A stretch of DNA of 64,000 bases from Takakia lepidozioides (lineage: Eukaryota; Plantae; Bryophyta). Within the stretch, counting starts at the first letter, position 1. Every line of letters starts with the position of its first letter. Made by a program: the position numbers and the translations under genes. Where the stretch lies: NCBI GenBank assembly GCA_030704615.1, contig CM060734.1, positions 39,122,001 to 39,186,000 on the forward strand. Reading direction: 5' to 3'. Below, in pieces: positions 1-52,694 of this stretch. The notes beneath the pieces are model-generated. The model did no database searches, was not told the DNA's origin, and was given only the letters and a program-made list of their open reading frames with translations.

Positions 1-2380
1 TGTAGCCCAATCCCATGATCGGAAGAGGGTGCAATTGTGGAGTAGGGGCGTTGAATGAAGCACGCACCCTGTCACACACCATGCACCTAGCCACAAATTG
101 TTGCACCTCTGTGTGCATATCACGCCACCAATACTGCCCCTGCAGTAGACTATGAGTGCGTCGCACCCCAAAATGCCCCAACTCCTCATGGGCATGCCGC
201 ACTAACCGTGCCCGCTGTGTTGGGTGAGGCACAATCCTCACTTGACCATCCTCCCACACTCGAAGCAGGTGTGTCCCCTCCCACTTGAACCTCTTGGCTC
301 GTTGTAGGATCCGATCCCTCTCCTTGGCAGTCACAGTGGCTGCAGTGTCTCCAGTGCGGAGGTAGTCCAACACAACTGAATCCTCATGTATATCTTTGGC
401 GCCACCTTGCTCATTGTTGGCCTCAGGGTCCTTAGACACTTGATCTACAGTCATCCCTGTTGTAGGTCCAACCTGGCCTTCCGCTGCCAAGATACACAGA
501 AATGCAGATGCATGCCATCCGGGCACCATCTCCTCGTCCGTCTCACCATGCCACCGAGCTCCAGTGTCATCCTGCTGGCTCGTGCATGGATTGCGACTCA
601 ACCCATCTGCATTGTGATTGACCAAACCCGGTCGATGCACCACCTGAAAGTCATACTCTTGAAGGATAAGTGCCCACCGTGCAAGCTTCCCCGTAAGCTT
701 GTCTGACTCCATCAACCACTTGAGTGGTTGGTGATCCGTGACAAGGGTGAAGAGATTGCCATATAGATAGCACCTGAAGTGTGCCACGGCCCACACTGCA
801 GCTAAGCATTCTCCCTCATGTGAGCTATACTTAGACTCAGCAGCATTGTTCGAGCGGCTAGCGTAAGCCACTACGAACTCTCTTCCCTCATCATCCACCT
901 GTGTGAGCACCGCTCCAAGCCCCAGCATGCTCCAATCTGTATGCAGCTGAAAAGGACGCCCCCTAATAGGTCGTCTCAAGATGGGCGCCGAGGTCAACCT
1001 CGCCTTGAGCTCTTGAAAAGCTTGTTCTTGCTCATCTTCCCACTGCCACTCCTGGTCCACCTTGGTCAGCTTGGTTAGAGCCTTTGCAATGGCACTAAAT
1101 CCCTTAACAAACCGTCTGTAATAGTTTGCTAACCCCATGAAAGCTCGAACTCGGCTCACATCCGTGGGGCGTGGAACCTGTGCAATGGATTCTACCTTAG
1201 TCTGCTGTACCCCCAATCCTCCAGGATATATCATGTGACCCAGATACTCAATCTGGTTGTGGAAAAACTTGCGCTTTCTCGGATGGAACTTCAATCCGTG
1301 CGTCCTCAAGTGCTCAAATACCTCCTGAAGGTGTCTCTCATGCTCCTCCACCGTAGCACTAAAGATGATGATGTCATCTATGTAGCACCGAGCAAACTCC
1401 ACCCCTGCTAGAATCATGTCCATGACCCTTTGAAACTCAGCAGGAGCGTTTTTAAGCCCAAATGGTAAGAACCGCCACTGGTATAGGCAATCATTCCCGT
1501 GCTCATTGATCCCCCAGAATGTCGTCTTTTGCTTATCCGCCTCCTTGATCGGCAACTGGTGATATCCGGATCGTAAATCCAACGTGCTAAAGACCTTGGA
1601 ATGCCCAATGGCATCAAAGATCTCCTCTTCGGCATGGCATACCTATCGGACTTGGTCTGACGATTTACAGGCCGGTAATCACCGCACATACGTCTCTCCG
1701 TCCATTTGCCATAGACATCCTTCTTGGCTGGCATCACTGTGGCTGAAGCATACTCTCCACCAGAGAGCTCCACCAAACCTGCCTCCCAAAGATCCTGAGT
1801 TCTCATCTGAATCAAGGACCTCTCCATGTCACTGATCTATAGGGTCTCCGAAAGATTGGCGTGTCAGTAGCCAATTCATTGCGAATCTCTTGACCCTTCA
1901 GTGCTCCCAAGTCCTTCAAACTGAAGGCAAAGCAATTCCTGTAAGCCCTCAGGAACCGCCGCATACGTCGTCTCTCTCCTCCGGTGACAATGGGTCCAAT
2001 GTCAAGCTCCCAATTGTCCTCCGTAACTGCAACCTTAAGTCCAGTGGGCTTAGAGGTAGAGGACGCGTCCCGTGGTTGCTATGCTGCAACCTCTGGAGTA
2101 GTACTCCCTTCCTGCTCAGTCAATGACAAGGCCTCATCCTGTCCCATCATCTCATCCTTGAGGACCTCCTCAACCCGAGAAGATTCCCCAACCTCATCCA
2201 TCACAGCCGCCTTGGCTGCCAACTCCCTCTGAACCTCGAGCACCTCCCACGTGTGCCATGGATGCATGCACCCCGTGGTCCTCACATGCTCGCCCCGACT
2301 CACTGCCTGTACCGTCTCGGTAGGTAGAGAGACCATTGAGGGAAGTGTATTCCGCACTTTGCGTTGCTCAGCCAGAGCCA
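1..2380 (-). pseudogene. pol RT / RNase H / integrase N-terminus of copy 1
   Basis: RMCGDYRPVN, DLRSGYHQ, PFGLKNAP, CYIDD, EGECLA, TDHQPL motifs across frameshifts; colinear with 16820-19200. Confidence 0.93.
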
Positions 2381-2389
2381 AGCTGATAA

Positions 2390-3325
2390 TCCAGGTCAAG
2401 CAATTGAGATCCATTGCTTGCCCCAACACTTGACGACGTGATGCCTCAGAAAGAGACGACACCGCCGTGGTACCAGTGGTAAAACCCATTGCCCGCTCAC
2501 GCTCGTCAGCATTAGGCTCCACTAACTGCTGCAACTGAGCATCCCACAGGAGGCCAGGTCCACTATCCCGGAAAGCATGCGATCCTGGGAAGCTGAGCAG
2601 TGTAGGTAATGCTGCTCGTGGTTGAGCCACCTTGTTGACCACTACCAAAGGCGAACGGTCATCGTGTCTCACATGCTAAGACTGCCTCCCTGTGTCCAGA
2701 ATGTTATCCACTGTGAGATGTGCTGGCCGCTCCACCCCATCAAATGCACGCTTGAGTAGTGCGGGTGGCATCAAGTTAGTCCACCATAGCCGTGGACGAT
2801 GAGCCCGTGACTCCACTGTAGCTGCATCTAGCAACACTGCTGACCCAAGCCACGATCGGACTTGATGCACACTGGCCATCACCCTGGCCCGAGAATCGCC
2901 CATCAGTGGCACATTCTCCAAGATGTATGCTGGAGATACAGCTTGATGAAGCTGCAAGTGGCGCAAAACCCGCACCATCTCCCAAAACAGACCCGACCTC
3001 GAGTCTCGCAATCCATTGCCATGCCCGGCTGATGAATGCCTTTGGCAGGGCCAACCTGCCACTACCAGATCAATGGAGCCAACCCGCTCCAAATCCTGCG
3101 CCCCCAGCAACAAAATATCTGCTGGCAAGGCCTGCTAATATCCACGAATTGCAGACACCGACAACAACTCAGGGTACCGCTGCACCAACTGAGCAACATG
3201 GCGAAGTGAAATGCGTCGTGCAGTCTCATCCCTCTCCACATACAGGTAACGCCGAACTCGTACACCTGCTTGTAACACAGCAGCCAATCCGGTGCTGATC
3301 CCGCCAAACAAGTCCAGAAGGCAAA
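2390..3325 (-). pseudogene. DNMT3-like C5 cytosine methyltransferase domain inside retroelement pol
   Basis: Motif I LLDLFGGISTGLAAVLQAG, acidic motif II YLYVERD, motif IV DLVVAGWPCQ, GLFWEM, motif VI YILENV, motif VIII RAHRPRLWWTN, motif IX ERERAMGF, motif X RRQVLGQAM; frameshift near 3328, in-frame TAG at 2676. Confidence 0.93.
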
Positions 3326-3759
3326 TGCTTCATCCGGATACTGCCACACAATAGGTGTGGTATCCAATGGTGACAACTGAGGTGGTCCTGGTGCAATACC
3401 CGCGCTCTCCTCCTCTCCTGACGGTACAAAAGCCTCTACCCAGGCTTGTTGCACCCGTCGATCAGCAACCTGCTGCAAATCCTTGCTCATACCCCACAAT
3501 GGAGTGTGAGCAACCATGGCAGGCAACTCCGCCACACCATGCATGTCATCCTGCTCTGCTGGAGGTGGCACATCCTCTGCATGGGCATTGCCTTCCAGCA
3601 ACTCTCCAGGCCAACTAACTGCAGCTGTAAAGGCGGCTAGTGTTGGCATCTTGCCCCGTTGGGCAGCCGCAATACCCCCAATGAATGTCACAGGGAGCTG
3701 TGCATGACGACCATCCCCTGACTGCCATCCAGGCCTGTAGAATGCTGACTCCTCCCAAA

Positions 3760-4725
3760 AGTCCAGGGTGAAGCCCATGGGGTATAACACTGCCCCACCA
3801 ACGAGGACATCGTAAGAGACCGCGTCTGTCACAATGGCCTTGGCTCGCATTACTGAGCCATCGATAGGATGATCCGGCTGCAGTCTAATGGCCAACTGAT
3901 GCCGTGTCATGCCCCGAGCCTGCTCTGATCCTCCCAGAGATGTCTGTATCTGGAAAGGACAAGGCTCCATATCCGCCTCCATGAGGCCCAAACCTGCAAT
4001 AGCAGCTCTGCCCAACATCAGTGGCTAAGCTCCCGAGTCCAACAAGACCCGCAGTGGCCGGTACTTCTTGCCTGCCGGTCCACTCAAAGAGAAAATGCCA
4101 TCCTGGTTGTCTAACAAGACAACTCCAGGTGTCACCATGGCGCGCTCAAAGGCTGGCCTAGCTGGTAGCTCCGTCAACCTGGTAGCTGCAGCTTGCCATG
4201 GCGCGGCCGTAGCAGTCTTGACCCTCAAATCTGAGGATCCCTCTGCCACTACACCTTCCAGTAACTCCGCAGAAGATGAAGTGACCTCCCCACTCTCACA
4301 GAGTGTTGCTGCTAGTCTGAACACTGCAGCTGGTCTTACCCCCGGCGACGCAATCATGGTTGCCAAGAACAGTGGGGCTTGACACACAGAGGTGGCTGCC
4401 CCCAACAACACACCGGCTGCACTAGCCTTGGCAGCAAGTGTCAGTGCTGCACGTGTAGCTCTCCCCAATGGCATAGAAACCTCCGCCTCGGTAACAGTCG
4501 GGCGAGAACTAGGTGCCATGGATGGCGTTGCCACTGTCTCCGCCAAGGTGAATGACTAAGGCAGCCTCGCCTAACGGCTTGCCTCCCCACGTTGTGGATC
4601 CAACTCCACCTCTGCACCTCGTGGCTCAGGAACTCGTGCTGCTCCTCGAGTCACGGCTGCAGCAGACTCCACCTGCTCTAGTGGTAGTGCTGCTCCGCAT
4701 ATGAATCCCATGCCTCCCATATCAC
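3760..4725 (-). pseudogene. Aspartic protease and gag-pol spacer of copy 1
   Basis: LLDSGA*PLMLG and YDVLVGG retropepsin motifs; near-identical to 15850-16818. Confidence 0.88.
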
Positions 4726-5110
4726 TCATAGTGGCCTGGTGAATGAAGTTGTCACGTTTGGGATCGCAAACCATCATCTTCAAAAATATGAAATACAAAT
4801 GTTTGCAGGATATGAATTTACCTTTCTTGCCCAAACTGGTTGATAGCATATTCACAAAATCAGGACATGTGCAATTGGGGAAATTGGAAACCGTGATGTC
4901 GTAGCTCCTGTCATGAACAGCAGATGTGGAAGTGATGATTGTGAATACCCGACCATATCCTGGATCGGGTACTTCCGTGGTGCTTCCAACACGAGCTTGG
5001 AGCATTCTTGCGGACTCCACTTTGCCAAAGTGTTCAGCGGTTGGAGGGAAACGCTAAACGAGCTTTCCATCTCGTTTGGTTGGCACAAGTCAGGATTTGT
5101 CGGGGGGACC
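4725..5110 (-). pseudogene. SWIM zinc-finger fragment (MULE-like) replacing most of gag
   Basis: CTCPDF...SCKHLYFIF (CxC-xn-CxH); homologous to 28160-28460. Confidence 0.8.
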
Positions 5111-5806
5111 CGGGAGGACGCAGAAGTAGTAGCACATGCAGCACTAGTTGAGGATGGAGGTGAAGGTGGTCTAAAACGAACACCTCGTCTGGTGAACCCA
5201 CTCTCACTGCTACTGCCTGTAGCCGTACTCCCCTCAGAACCCCTGGGTAACTCCGTGATGACACTCACAATGTGCACCTCCCCCACGTGACACTATAAGG
5301 CTCTATTATTAATTCTAATAGTGACACGGGTAGGCACCTGTTGCAGTTTAAGGGTCATATCCCAGTGGCTCAGGGCACCTGCACCTGCATCCACCGCAAG
5401 AACTCCTATGGTTGGCTGGTCATCAACCCAGTCTCACCATAGAAGAAACACTGGTGGTCTTGCTAGTCATCACTCCAGCCTCACCACCGACAACATACTC
5501 CAGGATTGACCGGTGATCAAATCCGGCCTAATCCCTATGAAAGCAAGCGCCCACACAAAACCAACATGGCACACAGTCAAGCATGCAGGTGTTGGGGGGG
5601 ATCCAAACACAAGAAATCAAAACATCAACACCCCCACACCAAAATCCATCTGAAATGCGGATCCTGCAGAATATCCCAGCCCAAAACCCCGGACTGACTG
5701 GCCTCCACCAAGAGAGGCTTTGGCAACTACAAGTACAAAGTAATGAAAATAGTAAAGAGATGGAGGGGAGGAATAGAAGCCCGACCAAGCAAGATCTAAT
5801 CCTGAT

Positions 5807-6556
5807 CTATGCTATCAACTGCCAGACTTCTCTCAAAGTGCCTCGCTCTGCATGATGGTAAGGTGTAGGCGGTATATCTATGTCCAGAAACCTGCCACTA
5901 ACCTTGTCCCAAGCTACAGTAGCTCGCTCTAACCAACCCTCCTCCTCTTTCTGCCAGGTAGAGACAAAGCAATACTCCCCTATCTCCCGCTCACTGAACA
6001 CTAAAGAAAATAAAGGTAGGGTGTGACAGTCTCTCAACTCGAAAGCTTTGAGACGGTTGCGGGTGTCCTCATTGTGAATGACTGCATCTCCTTCAAGTAG
6101 AACAAACTTGTCATTGCTAATGAACCCCCGCTCGTGGTTGCCTTGTGTAGAGCGTGTCCGGCTGCAACCATGTCTGATTGCACAAACTTGTGTAGCTCCT
6201 GCTCCTCTACTCCAATACACCACGGCCTTGTGGCTGAACACCTTGGTCCCCGGGGCTGTCTTTGGCTGTGTTCCAAGCCTAGCTTTCACCCACTTTGGTA
6301 TTCCACCTAAAGCTGCAGAACTGCTGGCTCCAACAAGGTTCTGACTGTCCAAAGCAATATTGAGGCCCTCAACGCCAACTACAACAGTTTGTTGTCCACT
6401 GCTAATGCCTGACTCCCAGTATGCAATCAACTCGTCCAACTGTTCTCCACTCAAATCAGTCTGAGTTCCTTGGGAAACATAAATCTTGTCCCCTTGGGTG
6501 CACACGCTAAGAGAAGAGACCTGCCCTTCAATTACGTCCTCATTTCCCCCAGCCAT
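5807..6556 (-). CDS. Uninterrupted 249-aa orphan ORF in the leader of copy 1
   Basis: ATG-initiated, no stops, globular-like composition, same strand as pol; no recognised motif. Confidence 0.5.
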   Translation of the reverse strand: MAGGNEDVIEGQVSSLSVCTQGDKIYVSQGTQTDLSGEQLDELIAYWESGISSGQQTVVVGVEGLNIALDSQNLVGASSSAALGGIPKWVKARLGTQPKTAPGTKVFSHKAVVYWSRGAGATQVCAIRHGCSRTRSTQGNHERGFISNDKFVLLEGDAVIHNEDTRNRLKAFELRDCHTLPLFSLVFSEREIGEYCFVSTWQKEEEGWLERATVAWDKVSGRFLDIDIPPTPYHHAERGTLREVWQLIA

Positions 6557-8559: not shown

Positions 8560-8916
8560 GATAAACAAAAGCTAAAAGGACACACACTCTCAACACAAGA
8601 AATATGAAATCCATCGCTATCACTCTTTAAAATAGAAGTCGAGCCAGGGGCACCCCAAGCTATGGGGACTCCACCCCACAACAACCTACACTCCCATCAT
8701 AAGCACACTCAGATCTAAACGCATGAAGGAGCTCGGTTGCGCAGGCTCAACTCGAGAGAGATGAGTTGCGCGACTGCCGCTCTCGTGAAGATAAGGCGGT
8801 TCAGGTGTCAAACTAAACTTGACACCTGATTTAACACTTGACCTAAATCCAAGTGTTAAATACAAATAACTAGCTTTATTCTAGTTGTTTTCACACCGTG
8901 CTTATTTAACTTGACA
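8560..8916 (-). repeat. 5' terminal repeat A of copy 1 (diverged homologue of A1/A2)
   Basis: Reverse complement shares blocks TGTCAAGTTA, TTATCTTCACG, CTCATCTyTCTCGAGTTGAGCCT and TCCCCAT..TGGGGTGC with 10987-11300 / 20614-20929. Confidence 0.8.
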
Positions 8917-9664: not shown

Positions 9665-10520
9665 ATGAGATACGTAGGGTCGAGGGGTATCGTAGGTGTC
9701 GTAGGCGTTATGGCCGGGGACGAGCAGGCCCACCCCCCCCCCCCCCCCCCCCCCCTTCCAGTTTCCTCAGGCGGTCCCCCTGATTGTGGCCTCCCCCCGT
9801 CTGTTTCTTTGCCTGATCCACCTCCGGTTGTACCTGATCCGGACGTTGTACCCCCGGTTGCACCTCCAACATTACATCCTCAACCACCTCCACTTTCATC
9901 TCCTCCGCCAGCAGTGCCACCTCCACCTCCACCTCCACCACCACCACCACCTCTACCTCCACCTCCACCTCCACATGCATGTGCCCCCCGAACCCCTAGG
10001 AGGGGTCGGCTTCGCCCTAGGTTTCCTCCCCTTCGGCTTGGGCGGCCTGAGCCGGATCCTCGCCCCCAATGGGAAGCGCATAGGACTATGTTACTGACGA
10101 CCGTCCAACCTCGTTGTTGGGGGAATCATCTCAACCCTCCCACCCCCATCCGAGAAAATGTGGAGTTCGAGTATTGGGGGAGACGGTATGTTGTGAGAGC
10201 CGCTACAGACCCTGCTATGGGTCGGGGTTTATTCACGGTCAATGATATTGTGGTTCATCCTCGGAGAAACAGCATGGTGGACTTGTTTCCCTACTACGGT
10301 CCATACTACACCTCCGCGGAGTTCCGTACATTACGCCTCGAAACCCCATACATCCTACCCTACATTTTGTCTGTCAACGGACATGATGCACGTAGATGGG
10401 GTTGTCTCCCATTGAGATCAAATTTTGTGATGGTGACCCCGACATCTTTGGCAATGTTGCTGGGCTGGTCAATAGTTCTTTTGGTCATCCTAGGAGAACC
10501 AATGTAGTATGGGACGAGCG
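9665..10520 (+). pseudogene. Pro-rich region followed by SET-domain-like sequence (frameshifted)
   Basis: MGRGLFTVNDI...LFPYYG...DGDPDIFGNVAGLVNSS...TNV follows the SET pattern GxGLF...YxG...NxARFxNHS...PN. Confidence 0.6.
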
Positions 10521-10559
10521 AAGCGATGGGCATGAGAGCTTTTGTGAACGTCAGTATAC

Positions 10560-10902
10560 TGTGAGGGGATGCACATGTTTGGTTCACCAAGGGTACTCTA
10601 CTTGTCCAGCATGTGGACCTCAAGTCGATTCCAGATATTCCCCAGCTTGCAAGAAATTGATATTCCAGGGGCATCGACGGTATCTTCCCCACAATCATGC
10701 CTATAGAAGATCCAGACTTTTTAATGGGGCGCGAGACATGAGACCTGCTCCACATACAGTGACAGCCACCGAAATCAAGGAGCGTGCACGACATTACAAA
10801 CAATGGATTGATGATGGTGGGACTGTAGGCGCACAGAACGATCCCTCCAAGCTCCATGGCGTAAAATGATTGTCCATTCTGTTTGACTTGCCTTACTGGG
10901 AG
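10560..10902 (+). pseudogene. CACTA/En-Spm transposase fragment
   Basis: HQGYSTCPACG...KKLIFQGHRRYLPHNHAYRR...SILFDLPYWE followed by a GT donor. Confidence 0.85.
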
Positions 10903-10986: not shown

Positions 10987-11300
10987 TGTTCAGATCACAC
11001 CACTAGTGTGAAACTAGCTAGGAAATAGCTAGCTTTTACATATTGACATTTGGGATTGGCCCAAGTGTCAATCCAAGGGTCAAGGCAGATTTAGGCCCTG
11101 GAGTGGTTATCTTCACGGCAAGCGCGGAAGGCTCATCTTTCTCGAGTTGAGCCTCACCGCGCCTAGCTATGGTGCCGTAGTGTGGATTCCCCATGGCGTG
11201 GGGTGCACTTGGCTTGACTTGTATTTGAGTGATGAGGTTATATATGCATGAGTTTATGCTTCAGATTTGTGAGCTCGTGCTTGTATTCCTCTTCTTTATC
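10987..11300 (+). repeat. Repeat A1
   Basis: 10999-11300 is near-identical to 20628-20929. Confidence 0.95.
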
Positions 11301-11317
11301 ACTCGAGAAAGATGAGC
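11301..11317 (+). promoter_or_regulatory. Putative self-priming primer-binding site
   Basis: ACTCGAGAAAGATGAGC is the exact reverse complement of 11131-11147 inside A1; no TGG tRNA-type PBS here. Confidence 0.65.
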
Positions 11318-12827
11318 TCGTATCTGTGAGTGCCAAATACGAGTTAGTTGTAGCACTTGTGGTTTTTGCTTGAGAATGAGAGAAACCAAGTTGTTATGCA
11401 AGGAGCACCGTGGAGCTCTTGGTTGTTAGAAGCGGAGGCGATGTGGGTTACGAGGTGGTAGACCTTGGCATTCGATCTTCAGCTTCAGAGATGAAAGCAC
11501 CATGCTGCAGGTAATTCCAGAGCACCTTGATGGTTTCAGATTGTGTACATGCATGAGCAAGCACGATTGGGAAGAGGACCAGTCAAGAGCAGGTTATAGT
11601 GGCTTTGGTGGCAAAGCTGAGAACTGGACTTGGGAATGCGAGCTTTCATTGTGTGAAGGATTGCAAGACCAAGCGAAAGGGCTGATTTGGCTTGGGGCAA
11701 ATCAGTGCACTTTGTGGAGTATGGTGAGATAGGGTTTCAATCTCGAGCTTCAGCATTGAGAGGGCTCTTGTCATGGCAAGAGCAGGGCTGGAACAGGAGC
11801 TAAGAGGTGCGACAAGGCCATGGAATGTGCACCTAGGGTTTCAGAGCTTGGAAGAAGAGCTCTTGTACCACAAGAGAAGTGTCTTGTGGTTGGAAATGTA
11901 AGCCTTAGGGTTTCAGGAGCTTGGCAAAGGCTGTGGAGTGCTTAGTCTTGTCTTAGAGAGCATCAAGGAGCCAAGGAGCCAAGATAGGGGGCTGATATCT
12001 CTTGTGTGAAGAGGTTGCATGTGTGGAGCATGTATTCAGCTCATTGAAGCTTCCATCTTCAAGCTTGGAGGGCAAGCAAGGAAGAGGGAAGGGCTGACTT
12101 CCCTTATGTGAGGGCAATGCATGTGTGGAGCATGCTATCAGCCTGGTGAAGGCTTGCACTTTCAGGTGTGGGAGTGCAAGAAAGGAAGGAAGGGGCTGGT
12201 TTCCCTGTAGGGCATGTGGAGCATGCTTTCAGCCTGCTGAAGCTTGTATTTTCAGGTTTGTGGGTGCAAGAAATGAAGCAAAGGAGCTAATTCTCTTATG
12301 GTGAGAGTGGGGCATGTGTGGAGCATGCCTTCAGCCCATTAAGGCTCTTGTTTTCAAGCTTTAGAGAGCTAGAATGAAAGGACTAGGGCTGGTTTCCACT
12401 TGGAGTGAAAGAAAAGCACTTGTAGGGCCTATGTGAGTTGGGGTTTCAACTTCAAGCTTGAAGGGAGCGCAACTCTTGAAGCAGCAGGTGTAGGGGGCTG
12501 GAATAAGCTCTAAGATAGATGCTATGGCCAAGGAGAGTGCTTGAATGAGTGCTCACAAGGGCTGGGAACCAGCAGGGCTTGGTTATTTGCCATTGAGTTT
12601 AGTGGCGTGTTTGGGGAGGCTAAGTGAGAAAGAAGGCTTGGTTTGTGGCAACCACCTCATGGCTTAGGGCTACTATGGTGGTGTGTGGGAGCCAAAAGAG
12701 CAATGCTGATTTCCTCACAGCCGCCATAGCTCGGTGGAAAGAAGCCTAGAGTCCAAGAGACACAAACCCTAGCTTGGCGTGGCTAAACCCCTTGGAGAAA
12801 TGGCTAAATTGCCAGAGCGGCCATGGA

Positions 12828-13745
12828 TGGGGCTGTGACGGGCTGTCCCTGTGGCCTTGGGGGCTGTGACGGGCTGTGATGGGCTACAACAGGTCGTGCC
12901 TGAGGCCTTTGGGGCTGTGAGGGGCTGTGGCGAGCTGTGACGGGCTGTGATGGGCTGTGAGGGGTTGTGACAGGCCGTGCCTGAGGCCTTTGGGGCTGTG
13001 AGGGGCTGTGAGGGGCTGTGACATGCCGTGCCTGAGGCTTTGGGGCTGTGAGGGGCTGTGTCAGGCCGTGCCTGAGGCCTTTGGGGCTGTGAGGGCTGTG
13101 CCGAGCTGCGCTGGTGGCCTTCGGGGCTGTGACAGGCTGCGAGGGGCTGTGTTGGGCTGCGCCGGTGGCCTTCGGGGCTGTGATGGTCTGTGACGGGCTA
13201 CGCCGGTGGCCTTGGGGGCTGTGATGGGCTGTGAGGGGTGTGCCGGTGGCCTTTTGGGGCTGTGACAGGCTGTGCCCGTGGCCTTTAGGGCTGTGATAGG
13301 CTGTGAGGGGATGTGACAGGCCGTGCCTGAGGCCTTTGGGGCTGTGACGGGCTGTGTCAGGCCGTGCTTGAGGCCTTTGGGGCTGTGAGGGGCTTGTGGC
13401 GAGCTGTGACGGGCTGTGAGGGGCTGTAACAGGCTGTGCCCAGTGGCCTGTGGGGCTGTGACGGGCTGTGCGGGGCTGTGACAGGCTGTGCCCAGTGGCC
13501 TGTGGGCTGTGACGGGCTGTGACAGGCCGTGGCGAGGTGTGACGGGCTGTGCGGGGCTGTGACAGGCTGTGGCGGAATGTGGCTTGTGGGGCTGTGACGG
13601 GCTGTGGCGAGCTGTGACGGCTATGAGGGGCTGTGACAGGTTGTGCCCAGTGGCCTGTGGGACTGTGACGGCTGTGACCAGTGAGCTGTGTGGGCCTGTG
13701 CTGGTCTGTGGTGGCCCGTGTTGACCTGTGGACGGCCTGTGCTGA
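12828..13745 (+). repeat. GC-rich minisatellite (10-bp GGGCTGTGAC-type unit, higher-order ~40-60 bp) in the leader of copy 2
   Basis: Dozens of gggctgtga(c/g/t) units interleaved with gtgcctgaggccttt / gtggcctt. Confidence 0.95.
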
Positions 13746-14415
13746 CTCGTGGAGGCACTGGTGGACTGCCTAAGGACTGGCATGTGGTCTTGAAGGCTGA
13801 ATTTTGAAGCTCGTGGAGGGCGGTTTGAGGAGTATCTTCATGATATTCCCATGGTCATGCAAGTGAGGGAAGAGAGGAGAGGAAGAGTGTTGGGATGAGG
13901 GCATGCTGGGGTTAGGCATTGTTTTAGCTTCTCTTCCTCGTAGTTTCCACCCTCTCATTAGGCCAAGACCTTTCCGTAGGTGGAGGCAAGAGTCAGTCCG
14001 GGTTTGGGCTGGGATGTCCTTGCAGGAGCAACACCGTGGAGTTGTTTTTGGTGTGGGGGAGTTGTCGTTCTGATTTCTTATGTTTGGATCCCCTCCATAC
14101 CTGCATGCTTGACTGTGCGCCATGCTAGTTTTGTGTGGGCGCTTGTTTTTATAGGTGATTGGTCCGGATTTGATCACCGGCCAGTCCTAGAGCATGCTGT
14201 CGATGGTGAGGCTAAGGTGATGACCAACCAGACCATCATTGTTTCTCATGTGGTGAGGTTGGAGGTGATGACCAGCCAACCATAGGAGTGCTTGCGGTGG
14301 ATACAGGTACAGGTGTAGGCTATGTTAGGAACTTAGTATTCCAAACCATAAGCCGCAACAGGTTCTCTACTCGGTTACCTTGTGGAGAGGGGGTTAGGGA
14401 CATGTTCATGACCGG

Positions 14416-16819
14416 TTGAGTGTCAACACGGAGGTGCCACTAGTTGATGGGGACAGTGCCGGTTCGAGCACTAGCGATACTAGTGGATACACGAGACGAG
14501 GTGTGCGGTTTAGGCCACCTTCACCTCCTGTGTCTTCTACAGAAGGTTCTGATTCGGATTGTGAATCAGGAGGACTCATACCGGCGGTGCAAGTTGTTTC
14601 TTTGCCATTGTTGTGGGACACAATGGAGGAGATGTATGGAGCTACCAAGGGGCCACGAAGGTACTCTGGGGCGGTGGGCACCCTCGAGTTGGATGATTTT
14701 ATCCAAGAGTGATTTGCAGCAAATGCGCAATCCACAACTATTTACGCCTTTCATGGCATAGAAGGGGCTGTTTCAACACCTTGAGGGGCCGCCTATGGAT
14801 GATTACCATGAGTTCAGGCGGGGGCATGAGGTTGAGATCGAGGAGTGGAGGATGTACTGGTCACCCGACTATGTCTCCATCACTAGGGGCACTAGAGCCA
14901 CGAGGGCAGTGGCTACACGTGCCGCTGCACCGGCAGCTTCAGCAAGTAGCAGTGGGACTGGTGGTACAGTAGCTACGACGTCCACCCAAGCCACTACCGC
15001 ACCAGCACTAGCACCCGTGCCTGACTTCAACCCTGTTGTGGAGTTCTTCGAAGAGTTGAGAGGGAACTACCAAGGGGTGAGGACAGAGAAGTTGCGGAGC
15101 TTGCAAGAGTTCCAACGGAAGCCGACCGAGAGCTTGAGGGAGGCTTTCACTCGCATGAGGCGCTTGATAAATGTAACCCAAGGGGTTACGGAAGCTCAGG
15201 CAGTCCAATTCTGGTATGGGATATTGGACAAGGAGCTGAGGAGAAGGGTGCGGGATGCAACTCTCCTACAAGCGGCCCAACCCACCTTAGCAAATGTGTT
15301 TTTGCTGGCAGAGCGGATAGAGCTCAACATGGTGGAGGAACGAGTGGTCACGGTGGGATTTGCTAAGGAGACACCACGGGGTAGTGGTGCTCCTAGCCAA
15401 CCACTACTCCCTTCATTTGCTGGCCAACAACGGGCGGATGTGGTGTGCTGGACATGTGGAGGACCCCATGTCAAGAAGGATTGCCCAGAGGGAGGCAAAG
15501 GGCCGGCACATGCACAGCCAGCACAGTTGCAGTGTGGGCATTGTGGCAAGCACGGGCATGCAGAGGCCCAGTGTTATGGTTTGCATCCTGAGTTGTGCCC
15601 AGGCCAGTTCCAAAGAAACAATGGTGGCCGGGGGTGAGGTGGAGCAGCCCACAGAGGACGAGGTGGCCAGCCACGAGGTGCAGGCCAAGGGCAAGCTCAA
15701 CATGGCCAAGGACGCGGAGGTCAAGGTGTTGACCAAGGCATGGCCAACCGGCTTCAGCAGCTAGAGCAGAGGCTTGCTGCCATGGCTACAGCTGAGGTGG
15801 TACCGGCTCTAAGGCCGGATGGTCCACCTCCTGCTCCTGAGGGAGGAGATATGGGAGGCATGGGATTCATGTGTGGAGCAGCACTACCACTACTGCAGGT
15901 GGAGTCTGCTGCAGCCGTGACTCGAGGAGCAGCACGAGTTCCTGAGCCACGAGGTGCAGAGGTGGAGTTGGATCCACAGCGTGGGGAGGCAAGCCGTCAG
16001 GCTAGGTTTCCTCAGTCATTCACATTGGCGGAGACAGTGTCGACGCCATCCATGGCACCTAGTTCTCGCCCGACTGTTACCGAGGCGGAGTTAACTATGC
16101 CATTGGGGAGAGCTACACGGGTAGCACCACTACCTAGTGTCACCAAGGCTACGACAGCTAGTGTGCTGCTAGGAGCGGCCACATCTGTGTGCCAGGCTCC
16201 ATTGTTCTCGGCTACCATGATTGTGACGCCGGGGGTAAGACCAGCTGAGGTGTTCAGGCTGGCAGCTACACTCTGTGAGAGTGGGGAGGTTACTTCATCT
16301 TCTGCGGAGATACTGGGAGGTGTAGTGCCGGAGGGATCCTCGGATTCGAGGGTCAAAACTACCACGGCGGCGCCATGGCAAGCTGCAGCTGTCAGGTTGA
16401 TGGAGCTGCCAGCTAGGCCAGCCATTGAGCGCGCCATGGTGACACCTGGAGTTGTCATGTTAGACAACCAAGATGGCATTTTCTGTTTGAGTGGACCGGC
16501 AGGCAAGAGGTACCGGCCACTGCGGGTCTTGTTGGACTCGGGAGCTCAGCCACTGATGCTGGGCAGAGCTGCTATTGCAGGCTTGGGCCTCACGGAGGCG
16601 GATATGGAGCCTTGTCCTTTCCAGATACAGACGTCTCTGGGAGGATCGGAGCAAGTTCGGGGCATGACACGGCGTGAGTTGGCTATCAGACTACGGTTGG
16701 ATCACCCTACAGATGGCTCAATGATGCGAGCCAAGGCCATTGTGACAGACGCGGTCTCATACAATGTCCTAGTTGGTGGGGCAGTGTTGTACCCCATGGG
16801 CTTCACCCTGGATTTTTGA
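14416..16819 (+). pseudogene. gag (two Zn knuckles) and protease of copy 2
   Basis: FQRKPTESLREAFTRM gag core, CWTCGGPHVKKDC, CGHCGKHGHAEAQC, RGG-rich tract, LLDSGAQPL; stops near 14710 and 15635. Confidence 0.9.
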
Positions 16820-19800
16820 TATCAGCTTGGCTCTGGCTGAGCAACGCAGAGTGCGGAGTACACTTCCCTCAATGGTCTCTCTACCTACCGAGACGGTACA
16901 GGCAGTGAGTGGGGGCGAGCATGTGAGGACCACGGGGTGCATGCATCCATGGCACACGTGGGAGGTGCTTGAGGTTCAGAGGGAGTTGGCAGCCAAGGCG
17001 GCTGTGATGGATGAGGTTGGGGAATCTTCTCGGGTTGAGGAGGTCCTCAAGGATGAGATGATGGGGCAAGATGAGGCCTTGTCATTGACTGAGCAAGCAG
17101 GGAGTACTGCTCAAGGTTGCAACATAGCAACCACTGGACGCGTCCTCTACCTCTAAGCCCACTGGACTTAAGGTTGCAGTTACGGAGGACAATTGGGAGC
17201 CTGACATTGGACCCATTGTCACCGGAGGAGAGAGACGACGTATACGGCGGTTCCTGAGGGCTTACAGGAATTGCTTTGCCTTCAGTTTGAAGGACTTGGG
17301 AGCACTGAAGGGTCAAGAGATCCGTATTGAGTTGGCCACTGACACGCCATCTTTCGGAGACCCTATAGATACAGTGACATGGAGAGGTCTTTGATTCAGG
17401 ACTCAAGATCCTAGGAGGCAGGTTTGGTGGAGCTCTCTTGTGGAGAGTATGCTTCAGCCATAGTGATGCCAGCCAAGAAGGATGTCTATGGCAATTGGAC
17501 AGAGAGACGTATGTGCGGTGATTACCGGCCTGTGAATCGTCAGACCAAGTCCGATAAGTATGCCATGCCAACACCAGAGGAGATCTTTGATGCCATCGGG
17601 CATGCTAAGGCCTTTAGCACGTTGGATTTACGATCCGGATATCACCAGTTGCCAATCAAGGAGGCGGACAAGCAGAAAACGGCATTCTGGGGGATCAATG
17701 AGCACGGCAAGGATTGCCTATATCAGTGGCGGTTCTTACCATTTGGGCTAAGAATGCTCCTGCAGAGTTTCAGAGAGTCGTGGATAGGATTCTAGCAGGG
17801 GTGGACTTTGCTCGGTGCTACATAGATGACATCTTTATCTTTAGTGTTACGATGGAGGAGCATGAGAGACACCTTCAGGTGGTATTGGAGCGCTTGAGAG
17901 CGCACGGATTGAAGTTGCATCTGGGGAAGTGCAAGTTTTTCCACAACCAGATTGAGTATTTGGGTCACATGATATATCCTGGAGGATTGGGGGTACAGCA
18001 GACTAAGGTAGAGGCCATTGCACAAATTTCACGCCCCACGGATGTGAGCCGAGTTCGAGCTTTCATGGGGTTGGCAAACTATTATAGACGGTTTGTCAAG
18101 GAATTTAGTACCATTGCAAAGGCTCTAACCAAGCTGACCAAGGTGGACCAGTGGCAGTGGCAGTGGGAAGATGAGCAAGAATGAGCTTTTCAAGAGCTCA
18201 AGGCGAGGTTGACCTCGACGCCTATCCTGAGACGACCTATCAGGGGCGTCCCTTTCAGCTACATACGGATTGGAGCATGCTGGGGCTTGGAGCGGTGCTC
18301 ACACAGGTGGATGATGAGGGAAGAGAGTTCGTAGTGGCTTATGCTAGCCGCTTGAACAACGCTGCAGAGGCTAAGTACAGCTCATATGAGGGAGAGTGCT
18401 TAGCTGCAGTGTGGGCCGTGGCACACTTCAAGTGCTATCTATACGGCAATCGTTTCACCCTTGTCACGGATCACCAGCCACTCAAGTGGTTGATGGAGTC
18501 AGACAAGCTTACGGGGAAGCTTGCACGGTGGGCACTCATACTCCAGGAGTATGATTTTCAGGTGTGCATCGACCAGGTTTGGTCAATCGGGATGCGGATG
18601 GATTGAGTCGCAATCCATGCATGAGCCAGCAAGATGACACTGGAGCTCGGTGGCATGGTGAGACGGACGAGGAGATGGTGCCGGGATGGCACGCATCTGC
18701 ATTTTTGTGTATCTTGGCATCGGGAGGTCAAGTTGGACCTACAACAAGGATGACTGTAAACGGAGTGTCTGAGGACCCTGAGGCTAGTGATGAGCAAGGT
18801 GGTGCCAGAGATATACATGAGGATTCGGCTGTGTTGGACTACCTCCGCACGAGAGACACGACAGCCACTGTGACTGCCAGGGAGAGGGGATCGGATCCTG
18901 CAACGAGCCAAGAGGTTCAAGTGGGAGGGGATACACCTACTTCGAGTGTGGGAGGATGGTCGGGTGAGGATTGTGCCTCACCCCACACAGCGTGCACGGT
19001 TAGTGCGGCATGCCCATTAGAAGTTGGGGCATTTTGGAGTACGACGCACTCACAGTTTACTCCAAGGGCAGTATTGGTGGCGTGGTATGCATACAGAGGT
19101 GCAACAGTTCGTGGCTAGGTGCATGGTGTGTGACAGGGTGCGTGCTTCATTCAACGCCCCTACACCACAGTTGCATCCTTTACCAATCATGGGATTGGGC
19201 TACAGGTGGAGTCTTGACTTCGCAGGACCGTTGCCACTGACTATGCGCCACCACAGATATGTGTTGGTGATGGTGGAGCACTTCTCCAAGTGGATTGAGT
19301 TGGTTCCATTGCCTGACAAGGCTAGTGAGGGGAGTTTCAGGCTTTGTGTGATAAAGCCTTGATAGACCACCGCACCACTTCTCGGGATCATCCTGAGGCC
19401 AATGGCTTAGCAGAGAGAGTTGTTCAGACGGTGAAGAGGGGTTTGCGCAAGTATGGCTTGCAGAAGGGACACCTAGGAGATTGGGATCTTCAGGTTCCTT
19501 GGTTAGCCATGGGCTACAGGTTCAGCAAACAAGCATCACTTGTCTCCTTCTCACCATATTTCCTTCTCTTTGGCCGAGAGCCGGATTTGCCTGCAGCCAT
19601 TCGTAGGGACACTGCTCAAGTCCTTAACCTTGACGATCCGGACGTGTGGGTACGTGCATGTGATCAGCGTGCAGAGTTGTTCAAGAAAGTCATGCCCATG
19701 GCTTTTGAGAACCTTGCCATTGCACAGCACCGTGATACGTTGAGGTATGCCACTATACGTGGTGGAGGATATCGTCCTGGGGTTCGGAGGTTTAGCCCTG

Positions 19801-20020
19801 GTGACTATGTTTATTTGCATCAGACTGCTCCTACGACTCTGGATGTTACTGCAGGGCGTGTTATTCTGAGGGTTCGAGAGGTGTTTTCCTCAGGGGTCCT
19901 GATCTAAGAGGGTCGGGATGGCATGACTTGGAAGGACCACGTGCGTAATTGTGCGCCATGTCACCTTCCCAATGTCGATGGCAGAGTTGACCCAAACTTG
20001 GCAGTGGTACCTGCAGGTTT
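16820..20020 (+). pseudogene. RT - RNase H - DDE integrase of copy 2
   Basis: CYIDD, LHTDWS, H..GHFG...CMVC, WSLDFAGP, HPEANGLAER; a deletion near 19330 removes the second catalytic Asp region. Confidence 0.93.
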
Positions 20021-20024
20021 GAGG

Positions 20025-20159
20025 TGCATGCTCTGTGGGTCTGCCAAAGGGGCAGCCACCATGCTGGTGTGTGATCGATGCTCAAGGGGTTGGCATATGG
20101 GATGCTTGACACCACCTCTTGAGAAGGTTCCTGACGGAGATTGGTTGTGTCCACACTGC
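20025..20159 (+). pseudogene. PHD finger (C4HC3) at the C-terminus of integrase
   Basis: CMLC...MLVCDRCSRGWHMGCLTPPLEKVPDGDWLCPHC. Confidence 0.93.
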
Positions 20160-20422
20160 TTGGGAAAGTGGCAGTGGACATGACTGGAGGCAGCTAACAA
20201 GACATGGGAGGCCAAGCTCATAGGAGTCAATACATGAGATCCCAAGCTCAAGTTCACAGGTTGCAAGACGGCGACTAACGATGGGGCAACTCTTGCACCC
20301 AGCCTCTTGATCTATCGAGTTTGAGTGTAGTAGGGATAGTGGTGGAGGACTTAGTGAGGCTATGGTCACTATCACATCTTGTGGCTACCTGGACTTAGAG
20401 GGACCTAAGCACCAGCTAGCGA

Positions 20423-20612
20423 TTGTGTGGACTAGTGACTGCCATAGTGGGCAGCATAGTGACAGACTAGTGACTGACTAGTTGTAGCTTAATGGTTGGA
20501 CTAGTGGCTGGACTAGTGGTGGACTAGTGGTATACTAGTGTGTGGTGTGCACATGTATTGTGTTGTTTTGGACAGCGATGTAGTTGTGTAGCGATATGTA
20601 TGCGCACGACAG
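20423..20612 (+). repeat. Repeat B1 (contains short GGACTAGTGGT-like units)
   Basis: Near-identical to 20931-21121. Confidence 0.95.
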
Positions 20613-21121
20613 CTGTCAAGTTATTTTACCACTAGTGTGAAACTAGCTAGGAAATAGCTAGCTTTTACATATTGACATTTGGGATTGGCCCAAGTGTCAA
20701 TCCAGGGGTCAAGGCAGATTTAGGCCCTGGAGTGGTTATCTTCACGGCAAGCGCGGAAGGCTCATCTTTCTCGAGTTGAGCCTCATCGCGCCTAGCTATG
20801 GCGCCGTAGTGTGGATTCCCCATGGCGTGGGGTGCACTTGGCTTGACTTGTATTTGAGTGATGAGGTTATATATGCATGAGTTTATGCTTCAGATTTGTG
20901 AGCTCGTGCTTGTATTCCTCTTCTTTATCTATTGTGTGGACTAGTGACTGCCATAGTGGGCAGCATAGTGGCAACCTAGTGACTGACTAGTTGTAGCCTA
21001 GTGGTTGGACTAGTGGCTGGACTAGTGGTGGACTAGTGGTATACTAGTGTGTGGTGTGCACATGTGTTGTGTGGTTTTGGACAGCGATGTAGTTGTGTAG
21101 CGATATGTATGCGCATGACAG
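20613..21121 (+). repeat. Repeats A2+B2 (together an LTR-like TGTCA...TGACA unit)
   Basis: A2 20614-20929 and B2 20931-21121. Confidence 0.95.
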
Positions 21122-22289
21122 TGATGACATGTGCTAGTAGGACTATTAGGGCTGGCAGCGAACTATTTGCATCATATGAGTTCTCCCGGGATGATTGGGA
21201 CCTCTGATTACAGCGTGAGTGGGATGTGTATGATAGAAATAGGGTTCCTTTGAGACAGGGAATGCATAGAAGGGCATTGTAGATATTCTCATGATGTACT
21301 TTGTATACATCCGATTAATCGATTGATGTCGTGTGAGTTGCAACTTTGCACATGTGATCTAGACATACTTATGGACATGTGGACCAAATATGAGCTCGAA
21401 CCAAGTTGATTCAATGGGTCATTCTAGTGTTGAACGCAGCTCCGTGTCATAGAGACGGAAAATTGTGTTTCGCCTGCAGATGATTTTTTTTTTATTCCAT
21501 TTTCAAGCCATATGCTTAATGATAGCATATGCAATGTGCGTGCAAAATTTGGGAGTAAACAAAAGTCATTTGGACCTATAACCAGATTTTGTTCTCTCAC
21601 TTGCATTCCAAAAATGAGTTATCTTCAACTTCATGCACTCTTCATAGGAGAGTGCTACAAAAGTAACCCTAGAAACACACTTATTTTTTTTCCATTTTGT
21701 TTTGTCCCATTTTTTGTATGGATGTAGTCCCGATGTCACAGAACAAAATAGAGCTAAAAATAAAATCATTACGCCCCTCAAAACCGTAATCATATATTTT
21801 CTAAATGCAAATATTTATTTTAAATTCATTTACATTCGATTTAATTCAAAATTGGTGCAAGGGTGAGTGCGTCGTTGGGGAGGCAATTTTTTTTTTTTTA
21901 TTTTTATTTTTCCGGCCCTGCCGGATCTTTGTACAGGTGTTGCACACATATTTAAGCACATGTAGGAAAAAATGAAGCTTGAGCTACATCCGTTAGTTGG
22001 GTGCAATGGCATGAGAGGATTTTCTTTCACATTAATAAACAAAAATTGGTTGATAGGGTGAATGCGTCATTGGGGGGACAAATGATTTTGTTTGGGTTTG
22101 AAACTTTGCATGCGTGTACGTTGCGCACATACATGTAATTATTGAATGACATATTTGATGCACACACACATTGAAGGTTGTTGTTTGCATTTCGCTTATA
22201 ATGAAGTGTATGGTTGTAAGGACACATTATAATATATGTCCCTATGTTCATTTGTTCGTATCAGCACTTTGTCCATCCCTTCCCGGTCT

Positions 22290-25200
22290 TTTCTCTTGGC
22301 ACCCCATCCGAAAACAACCCAAGTACATCAGGCGGGAGCCGTGGGCGAGACGCCGCCCCCACGGTACCGGACGATGATGACGATGACAGTGATAGTGACA
22401 GTGACAACAACAATGAGCATGGAATTAACCAGGAGGATGTGCAAGCCATGGAGGATCTTTTAATGCATCATGTGGGCGCCGATGCATCCCATGAAGAGGG
22501 AACCCGGCCAATCGATGATCCTGAAATGGCCCCCTCAAATGACATGAAGAGGGTGGCAATAACTCCCTTGTACGAAGGGGCGAAAGTGAGTCGACTTTCA
22601 ACAATCTTATTTTTGCTCAATCTTCAAATTCGATTTGGCACAAGTAATGTTGGGATGTCTGCCATAATGTGAACTATTGCAGACTATATCCTTGCTCCAC
22701 ATTTGAAACCCAAGATGCCACGGTCGCGGAAAGAGGCCCGCGAAGTCTTGGACTCTGTGGGGATGGGCTATAAGATTTTTCATGCATGTCTATGTGATAA
22801 AACCCTATACTACGGAGAGGATTCGCATCTCACCAAGTGCCCAAAGTGCAAGAAAGACCGATATCGGGATGATGTCCAAGGGAAAAAAGTACCACGCAAG
22901 GTATAAGCGCCATTCCCCCTCGCATGGAGATTACTTTCTTTAATCTTCTCAATGTATGTAAAGTGTATTCCACAAAGTTTAGGGTTTAGAGAATAGTACT
23001 CATGCAAGATCTGATTGTGGTTTTGGAAGGAGCGACGTTCGGTTTTGACCATTCACACCCAAATGAGGGAGAGACTGCATAAAGGGAAAGGCATAAAGGT
23101 GTTGTATTATGTGTGCTAATGGGATGATTACATGTGGGGGGCGTGGGGTATTTCATCCTAGAAAATGTATTACTTTCTGATCATCCCGCGATTGAGGGCA
23201 CAGTACCGAAGCCCCGAATTGGCCAGACTCATAAGATGACACGCCTCGCATCGGAGCCCCCCGGGAAAGGTGTGCGGGCCACAAGATTCACAAGCATGGA
23301 GACATATTGAAGAGATGTGGCCTTTTCTCTTGGAGGACCCACGACATGTCCACCTCGGCTTCTCTTCGGATGGGGTCAACCCATTCTCTGTCCAGTCATG
23401 TAGTCATTCCACTTGGCCGGTGACCATGGTGAATTACAACATCCCTCCGTATCTTTCAATTAAAAAAGACCATATCATGTTGGCTGCCATTGTGCCAGGT
23501 GAGTGTACTCATTTCATGTTTATTATTGCCTACATTAAACTTCTGATCTCTGACGCAATTTGGATACAAGATTGATGAGTGACATAATCATGAAGTAAGA
23601 CGTGTAATTCATTTTGTAGTATAATTTGCATATTGGTGGAGCATTGAAACAATGATGTGAATGTCTCATAGGGAAAAAAACAAGTGGCAAACATGGACAC
23701 GTACTTGCGACCTGTTGTTGATGAACTTAAGGAGCTATGGAGGGGGGTCTTGACATTGGATGCTTCACTTGACCCTATGGCCGGACAATCTTTTCAGATG
23801 AGAGACATCTTGCTTTGGACAATGCATGATTATCTAGGTATATTATGTTCCCCATGAACAACCCGTGTACATTCACTTGTCAATGCCGGATAATATCGAT
23901 GAGGATTGGGATTAATTGAAGTAGCGGCGACAGTCTTGTGCATCGTAGTGGGGTAGATGACATTATGGGCCGTGCACATGACAACTTTTTGTTTTTGCTA
24001 ATGTGGCGGGATGTGTAGTACATAACTAACTGTTTGCTCGGGGCTAAGCACCAAAGGGTACCATGCATGTTTGCATTGTGGTGATGATCTTGATGCACAT
24101 AGCTCCCGCCATCTTCACAAGATGGTGTATCCCAACTACCGCAAATTTCTTCCTATGAGCCATCGATGGAGAAGAAGAGAGAAACACTTGTTTGGTGACA
24201 AAGAGGAAGTACGTCCCCCCCTATGACACCGTCCGGGCAGTTTTGGGAGGACCGATGGAAGGAGGCCTATGCGGGCACGGACGGTGAAGTGGACGTGCCC
24301 GACATGAAACGACTTTCAATTTTCTACGAGTTGCCATATTGGGCGGTACATATTCCACAAAAACACCGTCAATATCCCTATGCTTGCATGTGATATTGCA
24401 CATTTGGTATGGGATATATGTAGGACCTGAAGATTCGTCATCTTCTAGATCTTATGCATATTGAGAAGAATGTCTGCTCGTCCCTTTTTCGGGTTCTTCA
24501 TGGTACGCCGGCAAAGAAGGGAGTGGCTGCAAAAGGAGATTCTCCTAGTGTTAGAAAGGAGCTTGAGGAGCAAGGTCGCATGCGCCATCTATGGGCCGAA
24601 CAAAATGGTGTGGACCCAAAGGGTGTTGTACGGTGGAAGTATAGGCGCGCACCTTGACAATGGACAAAGGAGGAATACAAGAAAGTGATAGCCACCATAA
24701 GTGCTGTCCGAACACCAACTGGTTATGGGTCATCCCTCCGTACGAAGTTCAACGAAGAAGACGGGGTCCATGGTTTGAAGTCTCATGACTACCACACTCT
24801 ATTGCAAGACATTTTGCCCATTGCAGTACGTGGGACATTGACTCCCGAGGTTCGTGAGACAATCTATAGTTTGGGAGGCTTGTTCCGGTGGATTTGCTCC
24901 AAAGAGTTGGAAGAAGCAGATTTTCCACGCATGAAGAAGGAGGCGGCGGAGGTAATGTGTATGTTGGAGATGCACCTTCCTTCCTCCTTCTTTGACATCC
25001 AAGATCACTTGGTAGTGCACTTAGTGGAAGAGGCTTTGATTGCCGGCCCCGTTCATTCTCGGTGGATGTACTTCCTTGAGCGTTATATGAAGACTTTGAA
25101 AGGATTTGTAAGACAAATGGCGCACCCGGAGGGTAACATGGCGGAGGGGTATATGTTGCAAGAAGCTATGTTCTATTGCACGGAGTACATGGCAAGGGTG

Positions 25201-25440
25201 GATGATGAAGCCCCTTGGATGTGGAAGGAAGAGGAGGATGCACGAACTAATGACATCGTTTTGCCCAAAAAATCAAAGAGGGTAAAATTGCCGACCTTGG
25301 TGATTGAGCAAGCGCATGACTTCATACTGAAGAACACCCCATCCATACATGAGTGGGAGGCAAGATACAATAATCTTGTTCAGCAACAAGAGAAGGAGAC
25401 GCTTGCATGGAGGCGGAACCATCCAGGCCAGTTACTGCCA
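22290..25440 (+). pseudogene. Spliced CACTA/En-Spm TnpD-like transposase, 5' part
   Basis: HACLCDK..CPKC, SDGVNPF, STWPV, MHDY, DLMHIEKNV, LKSHD, RWMYFLERYMKTLKGFV; GT-AG introns; several stops. Confidence 0.92.
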
Positions 25441-26579: not shown

Positions 26580-26612
<33 letters not shown>

Positions 26613-27905: not shown

Positions 27906-27906
27906 G

Positions 27907-52465: not shown

Positions 52466-52694
52466 TATGTGAAGCCTGTTGGGGCCAGAAGAAACTGCGA
52501 GCTCCTGCGAGTGATGAGCTTAGGGAGAACAAAATGAAGCCTAGCCAAAACAAGCTACACACTCTGCACACAAGGGATGAAAAAACCTAGGGAAGAAAAT
52601 CTCACCCTGCAAGCTGGGTGGAGGACAAAACATCCCATAGGAAAAACCCCGAGTGCTACAAACGGTGCAAAAAACTAGCACGAAAGTCAAAACA

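Follow-up and report, generated by a model that had tools for sequence, protein, structure and literature searches.

A DNMT3-Like Methyltransferase Domain Upstream of a Conserved Stop, Predicted to Be Leaky, in a Ty3/Gypsy Element of a Bryophyte

Organization of the Locus

The window, i.e., the whole stretch of 64,000 nucleotides that was analysed, holds two copies of a retroelement that are 90-92% identical to each other (Table 1). Copy 1 shows the Ty3/Gypsy order of protease, reverse transcriptase (RT), RNase H and integrase, with the methyltransferase between protease and RT. The retroelement context between protease and RT, proposed by the initial annotation of this DNA, is thus borne out by the domain order. 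The same annotation described the methyltransferase as embedded in pol: its location between protease and RT stands, but not its inclusion in a continuous pol, since a conserved stop precedes the RT. Membership of the DIRS group, whose elements rely on a tyrosine recombinase, was ruled out by the H2C2 and rve integrase domains and by the 4-bp target duplications found in relatives.

Table 1. Features of the two copies of the element (positions in the window)
Feature	Copy	Position	Strand	Remarks
DNMT3-like C5 cytosine methyltransferase domain	1	2391..3329	minus	motifs, PF00145, fold
Motif I, LLDLFGG	1	from 3320	minus	copy 1 translation
Motif IV, PC	1	3050-3045	minus	copy 1 translation
Motif VI, ENV	1	2918-2910	minus	copy 1 translation
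Motif VIII, RAHRPR	1	2807-2790	minus	copy 1 translation
Motif X, GQAMD	1	to 2409	minus	copy 1 translation
Internal TAG stops in methyltransferase	1	3137-3135 and 2678-2676	minus	
Frameshift at 5' edge of methyltransferase	1	~3327	minus	
Aspartic protease region	1	3719..4150	minus	LLDSGA at 4045-4028
Stop directly after LLDSGA	1	4027-4025	minus	
Reverse transcriptase	1	1229..1746	minus	frameshifts near 1834 and 1630
RNase H	1	647..1045	minus	
Integrase start (H2C2 zinc finger)	1	1..238	minus	element continues past window edge
Foreign repeat fragment in place of gag	1	4724..5140	minus	CxC..CxH motif
Probable 5' terminal A repeat	1	8619..8916	minus	begins TGTCA; 69-80% like copy 2 A repeat
In-frame stop TAG CAA CCA	1	2073..2081 (stop 2081-2079)	minus	103 codons past methyltransferase
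Predicted long stem-loop 3' of stop	1	1959..2078	minus	z -2.7; suggestive only
Repeat A1	2	10999..11300	plus	first 14 nt absent
gag and protease	2	14632..16818	plus	ended by deletion
Same TAG CAA CCA stop	2	17125..17133	plus	
RT, RNase H, integrase, C-terminal PHD finger	2	17454..20159	plus	PHD 20025-20159
B1	2	20422-20612	plus	
Palindromic B1-A2 junction GACAGCTGTC	2	20609-20618	plus	
A2	2	to 20929	plus	
B2	2	20931-21121	plus	3' end of split-direct-repeat array 20422..21121

Copy 1 is dead: it carries stops in the methyltransferase domain and in the protease region as well as frameshifts near 3327 and in the RT, and its gag has been swapped for a foreign repeat of 417 nt. One frameshift and a single stop had been reported for this copy; the frameshift is confirmed, but two internal TAGs are present in the domain, the second of which is a sense codon in an 89%-identical relative. 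The CxC..CxH fragment that replaces gag, which we take to be SWIM-like, has a kindred fragment at 28157-28463 (65% alike).

Copy 2 extends from 10999 to 21121 on the plus strand. It has undergone a deletion of 1,367 nt, corresponding to positions 3755-2389 of copy 1, that removed the end of the protease and the entire methyltransferase. The loss of protease sequence along with the domain, and the stop at which the gap ends, show that this deletion is secondary. The 3.3-kb leader of this copy contains two tandem repeat arrays (11989-13741). Pieces of a CACTA-type transposase surround copy 2 (10396-10869, PF02992, and 22000-28000), which may be nested in a CACTA-type element.

The host genes of the window (45000-51400) are a divergent pair, an ABC-transporter-like gene on the minus strand and an HDA8-type histone deacetylase gene on the plus strand, both of them spliced in run X12. 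The introns of the latter, at 49-51 kb, are confirmed by spliced X12 contigs. In a tree of 26 rows without hornwort or Sphagnum, the histone deacetylase falls with Ceratodon and Physcomitrium (95/91); its best identity, 75%, sets it apart from all the annotated bryophytes listed. As far as this tree goes, the host appears to be a bryophyte of the moss side, in agreement with the land-plant host that had been proposed. The window also includes LINE-like fragments, so labelled from their translations, and short repeats at 31487-33441 and 38379-43523.

The Methyltransferase Domain

On the minus strand, positions 3329 to 2391 form a single frame of 313 codons without intron. The translation gives motifs I, IV, VI, VIII and X in canonical order, with Pro-Cys, Glu-Asn-Val and Arg-x-Arg all intact, and so supports the earlier description of C5-methyltransferase motifs in canonical order with the catalytic Cys. 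A search for PF00145, which had been suggested as a check, gave a match over the Pfam cut-off (E 4e-12), and this is the sole Pfam family in the domain. An atlas look-up with the domain returned generic PF00145 clusters only.

Among solved structures, the nearest by sequence is DNMT3A (E 2e-11, and 1e-21 in a profile search). The solved sequences of DNMT3A, DNMT3B and DNMT3C gave profile E-values of 1e-21 to 3e-15, and plant DRM (9e-10), then HhaI (6e-8), rank below DNMT3A. An AlphaFold model of the domain, built from 17 sequences, reached a pLDDT of 83.7 and a pTM of 0.86; compared by Foldseek, it matches DNMT3A/B with an E-value of 3e-16 (TM 0.65 for DNMT3A). These sequence and fold matches, together with the unpermuted motifs, uphold a DNMT3-like rather than a DRM-like domain. 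A DRM identity is ruled out by the circularly permuted motifs of DRM, which differ from the order I-IV-VI-VIII-X of copy 1. In the same way, a host plant DNMT3 gene is ruled out: only PF00145 was found, with no C-terminal DUF3444, and the domain sits in a retroelement.

Terminal Repeats

The ends of copy 2 are split direct repeats of the form A1 ... B1-A2-B2 (A..B-A-B). The 3' end of copy 1 lies beyond the window, and the arrangement was judged on copy 2 and on four metagenome loci that also have the complete set (L041, L047, L048 and L053). The ends of these loci read TGTCA...GACA, and a 4-bp target duplication flanks three of the four. Six loci share the palindrome of the B1-A2 junction with the window, and five further loci differ from it by one base. 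This junction may represent a pair of integrase attachment ends linked through a GC dinucleotide.

Relatives, Layouts and Selection

Among 7,991 candidates scored, 67 longer proteins match the domain at E 1e-10 or better. Named relatives belong to Marchantia, Calypogeia, Sphagnum, Closterium, Chromochloris and Monoraphidium, and Scenedesmus and Hariotina are also among them (10 looked up). The highest identities are those of Calypogeia (74%) and Marchantia (up to 73% across the whole domain). No Klebsormidium-named match was found among the protein relatives, and a term search in the supplement of PMC5890265 yielded no sequence.

A metagenome scan confirmed 304 stretches, of which 80 loci were kept. 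With the relatives from liverworts, Sphagnum and algae, they establish that the domain is multi-copy and show it to be no recent host-gene fragment confined to this copy. When the window is included, a near-full domain in one frame is present in 60 of 81 loci, and 12 of these are stop-free. An additional retroelement domain is present in 104 of the best 150 representatives. Furthermore, run X2 gave 54,697 contig records over positions 1-6000 of the window versus 1 over the host-gene stretch, and the summed contig depth in run X5 is about 660-910 on the domain versus 2-3 on host-gene pieces; this contrast is a rough sign of many copies and is not convertible to a copy number.

In the best 150 representatives, the catalytic Cys is retained in 149/149 and the Glu of ENV in 150/150, and the Args of motif VIII are retained in 149 and 148 of 149. 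The Pro of the PC motif is replaced by Glu in 88/149, EC being the commonest form. A loss of catalysis in the family, which the count of 51 PC among 150 could have indicated, was rejected, as this low count is due to the EC variant, in which the Cys is kept.

Two layouts occur in the family. The first is that of the window (protease-DNMT-RT-RNase H-integrase-PHD). The second is RT-RNase H-DNMT-integrase-PHD, sometimes with a G-patch, and its named members are chlorophytes (loci L039, L045, L054, L055, L059 and L060; proteins P0045 and P0060). This suggests either a shift of the domain within the element or two gains. A sister subfamily (L040-L079, e.g., L048:10001-10933), in which WECQ and ENT replace WPCQ and ENV, has the same A..B-A-B ends and a continuous methyltransferase-RT frame without stop.

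The selection analysis covered 35 sequences having both methyltransferase and RT. Between the window and its 11 closest loci, dN is 0.21-0.26 and dS 2.3-3.0, with a ratio of 0.07-0.11 that is rough because dS is saturated. The open copies L026 and L033 give 0.12. Young pairs show ratios of 0.38-0.52 for the methyltransferase and 0.39-0.47 for the RT, an elevation expected from decay after insertion. The domain is thus under purifying selection, with a between-lineage dN/dS of about 0.1, a rough estimate given the saturated dS. The dN/dS comparison proposed by the initial annotation therefore points to constraint, and this ratio as well as the invariant Cys and Glu speak against neutral evolution of the domain.

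In FastTree phylogenies built without host DNMT3, DRM or Klebsormidium sequences, the methyltransferase of the window falls in a clade with elements of Calypogeia, Marchantia and Sphagnum (support 1.0), and its RT joins the same elements (support 0.92), so that both trees are concordant for this clade. These values are local supports, and some architecture tags on partial proteins are unreliable.

A Conserved Stop between Methyltransferase and RT

In 23 of 27 loci, RT and methyltransferase share one frame, with a stop at a fixed place between them. Counted by a relaxed pattern, a stop followed by a CAR-type context occupies the homologous site in 34 of the 39 loci of the window's clade with enough sequence (35/39 before L020, an off-site match, was dropped), these loci being copies from about five lineages and not independent cases. 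The stop is absent from the sister types (0/25 in the WECQ subfamily and 0/6 in the second layout). The linker that flanks it is barely alignable between lineages, but the stop and the Gln codon persist. Gene models of Marchantia and Calypogeia terminate 88-92 residues past motif X, matching the site of the stop.

UAG-CAR-YYA, which in tobacco mosaic virus is the consensus for readthrough, also works with UAA (PMC3159437, PMC3542737). An exact CAR-YYA follows no more than 5 of the 34 stops at the homologous site. The full consensus is found in both window copies and in L026 (TAG CAA TCA), L030 (TAG CAA CCA), L031 and L033 (both TAG CAG TTA). Sphagnum-like copies have TAG or TAA with CAA-CCC or CAA-CCT and differ at the sixth base. 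A single host RNA contig (286-2453) crosses the stop without a joint; run X12, which behaves as host RNA, gives no cover over 2601-3000.

The stem-loop predicted 3' of the stop begins about 10 nt past it and has z-values of -2.7, -3.1, -2.3, -2.5 and -0.1 in five sequences. Complementarity over the whole arms is seen in both sub-lineages, and 30 of 35 loci have at least 8 long-range pairs. Over these 35 loci, its stability is no better than that of an upstream control (median z -1.24 vs -1.48).

Taken as a whole, the TAG CAA CCA stop is predicted to be a likely leaky stop that ends ORF1. As the methyltransferase lies upstream of it, the enzyme should be produced at the level of Gag, and the RT-integrase part by readthrough only. 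Such Gag-level expression would not be required in all elements of this kind, since the WECQ/ENT subfamily has no stop.

Relation to Known Elements

De Mendoza et al. (2018; PMC5890265), in a survey of 96 proteomes, described KnitGypsy-Dnmt3 from Klebsormidium nitens. The element of the window resembles it by its Ty3/Gypsy domain set, by an intronless and non-permuted Dnmt3-like domain within a polyprotein, by DIRS-like repeats and by purifying selection, for which a Ka/Ks below 0.2 was taken as the mark. A..B-A-B repeats were reported for SymbioDIRS-Dnmt3, and KnitGypsy-Dnmt3 is said in that text to share the arrangement. The presence of these repeats in copy 2 marks the element as the same known kind, here in a bryophyte. 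As judged by domain set and repeats from the text of the paper, the element is of the KnitGypsy-Dnmt3 type, and its assignment to the kind reported in 2018 holds for domain set, repeats and selection alike. However, its host is a land plant, and its methyltransferase precedes a conserved stop whereas the text of PMC5890265 places that of KnitGypsy-Dnmt3 in the Pol ORF. The same text mentions neither stop, readthrough nor PHD finger for KnitGypsy-Dnmt3; in the element of the window, the stop and the PHD finger are present and readthrough is predicted.

Other retrotransposons carrying a cytosine methyltransferase are SymbioDIRS-Dnmt3 and SymbioLINE-Dnmt (PMC5890265) and EpiLTRs (bioRxiv 10.64898/2026.05.21.726589). 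Their machinery is of the tyrosine recombinase or LINE kind, or else they combine a DNMT4-related domain with DAM and chromo domains, whereas the integrase of the window's element is of DDE type, with 4-bp target duplications in relatives and a PHD finger. PHD fingers are known in green-algal Gypsy elements (10.1101/2022.06.16.496473, PMC8557442).

The in-frame UAG, the CAA CCA context and the polymerase downstream in the same frame recall tobamovirus Type I readthrough and the gag-pol of murine leukemia virus (PMC3159437, PMC3542737). Unlike in these viruses, the stop follows protease and methyltransferase instead of coming directly after Gag, and readthrough is a prediction. The catalytic domain is of DNMT3 type like that of the host enzymes PpDNMT3a/b, but host DNMT3 has a C-terminal DUF3444 and DRM has permuted motifs (PMC6453930), neither of which is seen in the domain of the window; host DNMT3 is also described in PMC10952607.

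The preprint 10.64898/2026.05.21.726589 and PMC12344493 call the Klebsormidium-type element streptophyte, and a search for the term Marchantia found nothing in the text of PMC5890265 on the 96 proteomes. In the literature covered, which leaves aside subscription journals and the supplements of the preprint and of PMC12344493, in which land-plant copies may occur, there was no land-plant report of the element and none of the stop. The new points would be a further bryophyte lineage and a methyltransferase upstream of a conserved readthrough-type stop, hence predicted to be Gag-side.

Possible Role of the Enzyme

Why a transposon carries the class of enzyme that silences it has been an open question since 2018. 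The sole plant-lineage example, from Klebsormidium, was inactive in yeast (PMC5890265); the authors consider this absence of methylation by KnitGypsy-Dnmt3 inconclusive, and SymbioDIRS-Dnmt3 methylates CG in the same host.

For CG observed/expected, the element gives 0.46-0.62, against 0.46 for a methyltransferase-free Gypsy element of the window (51962-59572, with ordinary LTRs that are 95% alike) and 0.35 for a LINE of the window. C-to-T differences between copies 1 and 2 amount to 0.15-0.20 in CG, 0.16-0.18 in CHG and 0.06 in CHH, and those between the LTRs of the methyltransferase-free Gypsy to 0.17, 0.17 and 0.03, respectively. No self-methylation signature was found in CG depletion, in the mutation spectrum or by comparison of the elements of the window. 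The element and the methyltransferase-free Gypsy bear similar traces, which methylation by the host explains for both; seed-free plants have MET1, CMT and DNMT3 (PMC6453930).

The reading that we favour, and hold to be rather probable, is that copy 1 is a dead copy of a Ty3/Gypsy element whose active copies make Gag, protease and methyltransferase up to a likely leaky UAG, package the enzyme at Gag level and methylate new cDNA. ORF1 would thus encode Gag-protease-methyltransferase, and a few percent of ribosomes would read past the stop to produce RT-RNase H-integrase-PHD. The protease would free the methyltransferase within the particle, of which it would be an abundant component, packaged at Gag level. 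There it could mark cytosines of the cDNA before or at integration, most likely those in CG given the example of SymbioDIRS-Dnmt3. A new insertion would thereby arrive pre-marked and be tolerated or damped by the host.

It is unlikely, although conceivable, that the enzyme acts instead in trans: once released from Gag-protease-methyltransferase, it would enter the nucleus and there methylate other copies, rival elements or sites of insertion. This would amount to self-limiting control of copy number or to niche construction, and the integrase with its PHD finger may take part in the guidance. Such an action would suit the Gag-side position, which predicts enzyme in large excess over the needs of a single cDNA, as well as the PHD finger at the end of the integrase and the lack of extra CG loss in the element itself. 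However, neither a targeting domain nor a localisation signal was identified in the enzyme, and the methylation of the element is like that of neighbouring sequences, for which MET1, CMT and DNMT3 of the host suffice (PMC6453930).

We regard as quite improbable that the domain serves mainly to bind nucleic acid or to build the particle, or works on RNA, DNA methylation being incidental. A binding role would fit the predicted structural stoichiometry, the frequent replacement of the Pro of PC by Glu (88/149) and the inactivity of the Klebsormidium domain in yeast (PMC5890265), but a pure scaffold would not need the Cys, the Glu and both Args of motif VIII, which are near-invariant. More improbable still is an absence of readthrough, with RT-integrase translated from a message that is spliced or has its own start, and the CAR context merely reflecting a conserved Gln codon: most Sphagnum-like copies indeed lack the last A of the motif, but in 23/27 loci the sequences on both sides of the stop stay in one frame, the stop and the Gln codon outlast a linker that is unalignable between lineages and the sole RNA contig over the site has no joint. 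Recent capture of a host DNMT3 or DRM gene fragment that decays neutrally, which the broken copy 1 and the lack of the domain in copy 2 might evoke, is scarcely credible and was rejected, since the domain has the same position in dozens of loci and in liverworts, mosses and algae, a dN/dS of about 0.1, no intron and no DUF3444, the gap in copy 2 is secondary and the 89%-identical relative is open at the second internal stop.

Packaging at Gag level with methylation of the cDNA, the favoured reading, could be taken further, in a form that we put forward tentatively and judge somewhat less probable than its opposite. The element would belong to an old Gypsy lineage of green plants, abundant in bryophytes, that uses a leaky stop of plant-virus type to place DNMT3 at capsid stoichiometry, with many de novo enzymes per particle, and rebuilds integrase-ready ends from the palindromic internal B-A junction; it would be a self-methylating element, in Marchantia as well. 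The Gag-side position gives a concrete prediction, namely that the enzyme is an abundant component of the particle. As gene models of Marchantia polymorpha, a transformable model, hold open-frame relatives at 73% identity, the question is directly testable.

Counts of 'DNMT3 genes' in bryophytes can include transposon ORFs. Several Marchantia models annotated as hypothetical proteins (P0004, P0005, P0009, P0016 and P0034) are ORFs of this element. Another relative, P0189, is filed under a bacterial MAG and is probably carried-over plant or algal DNA.
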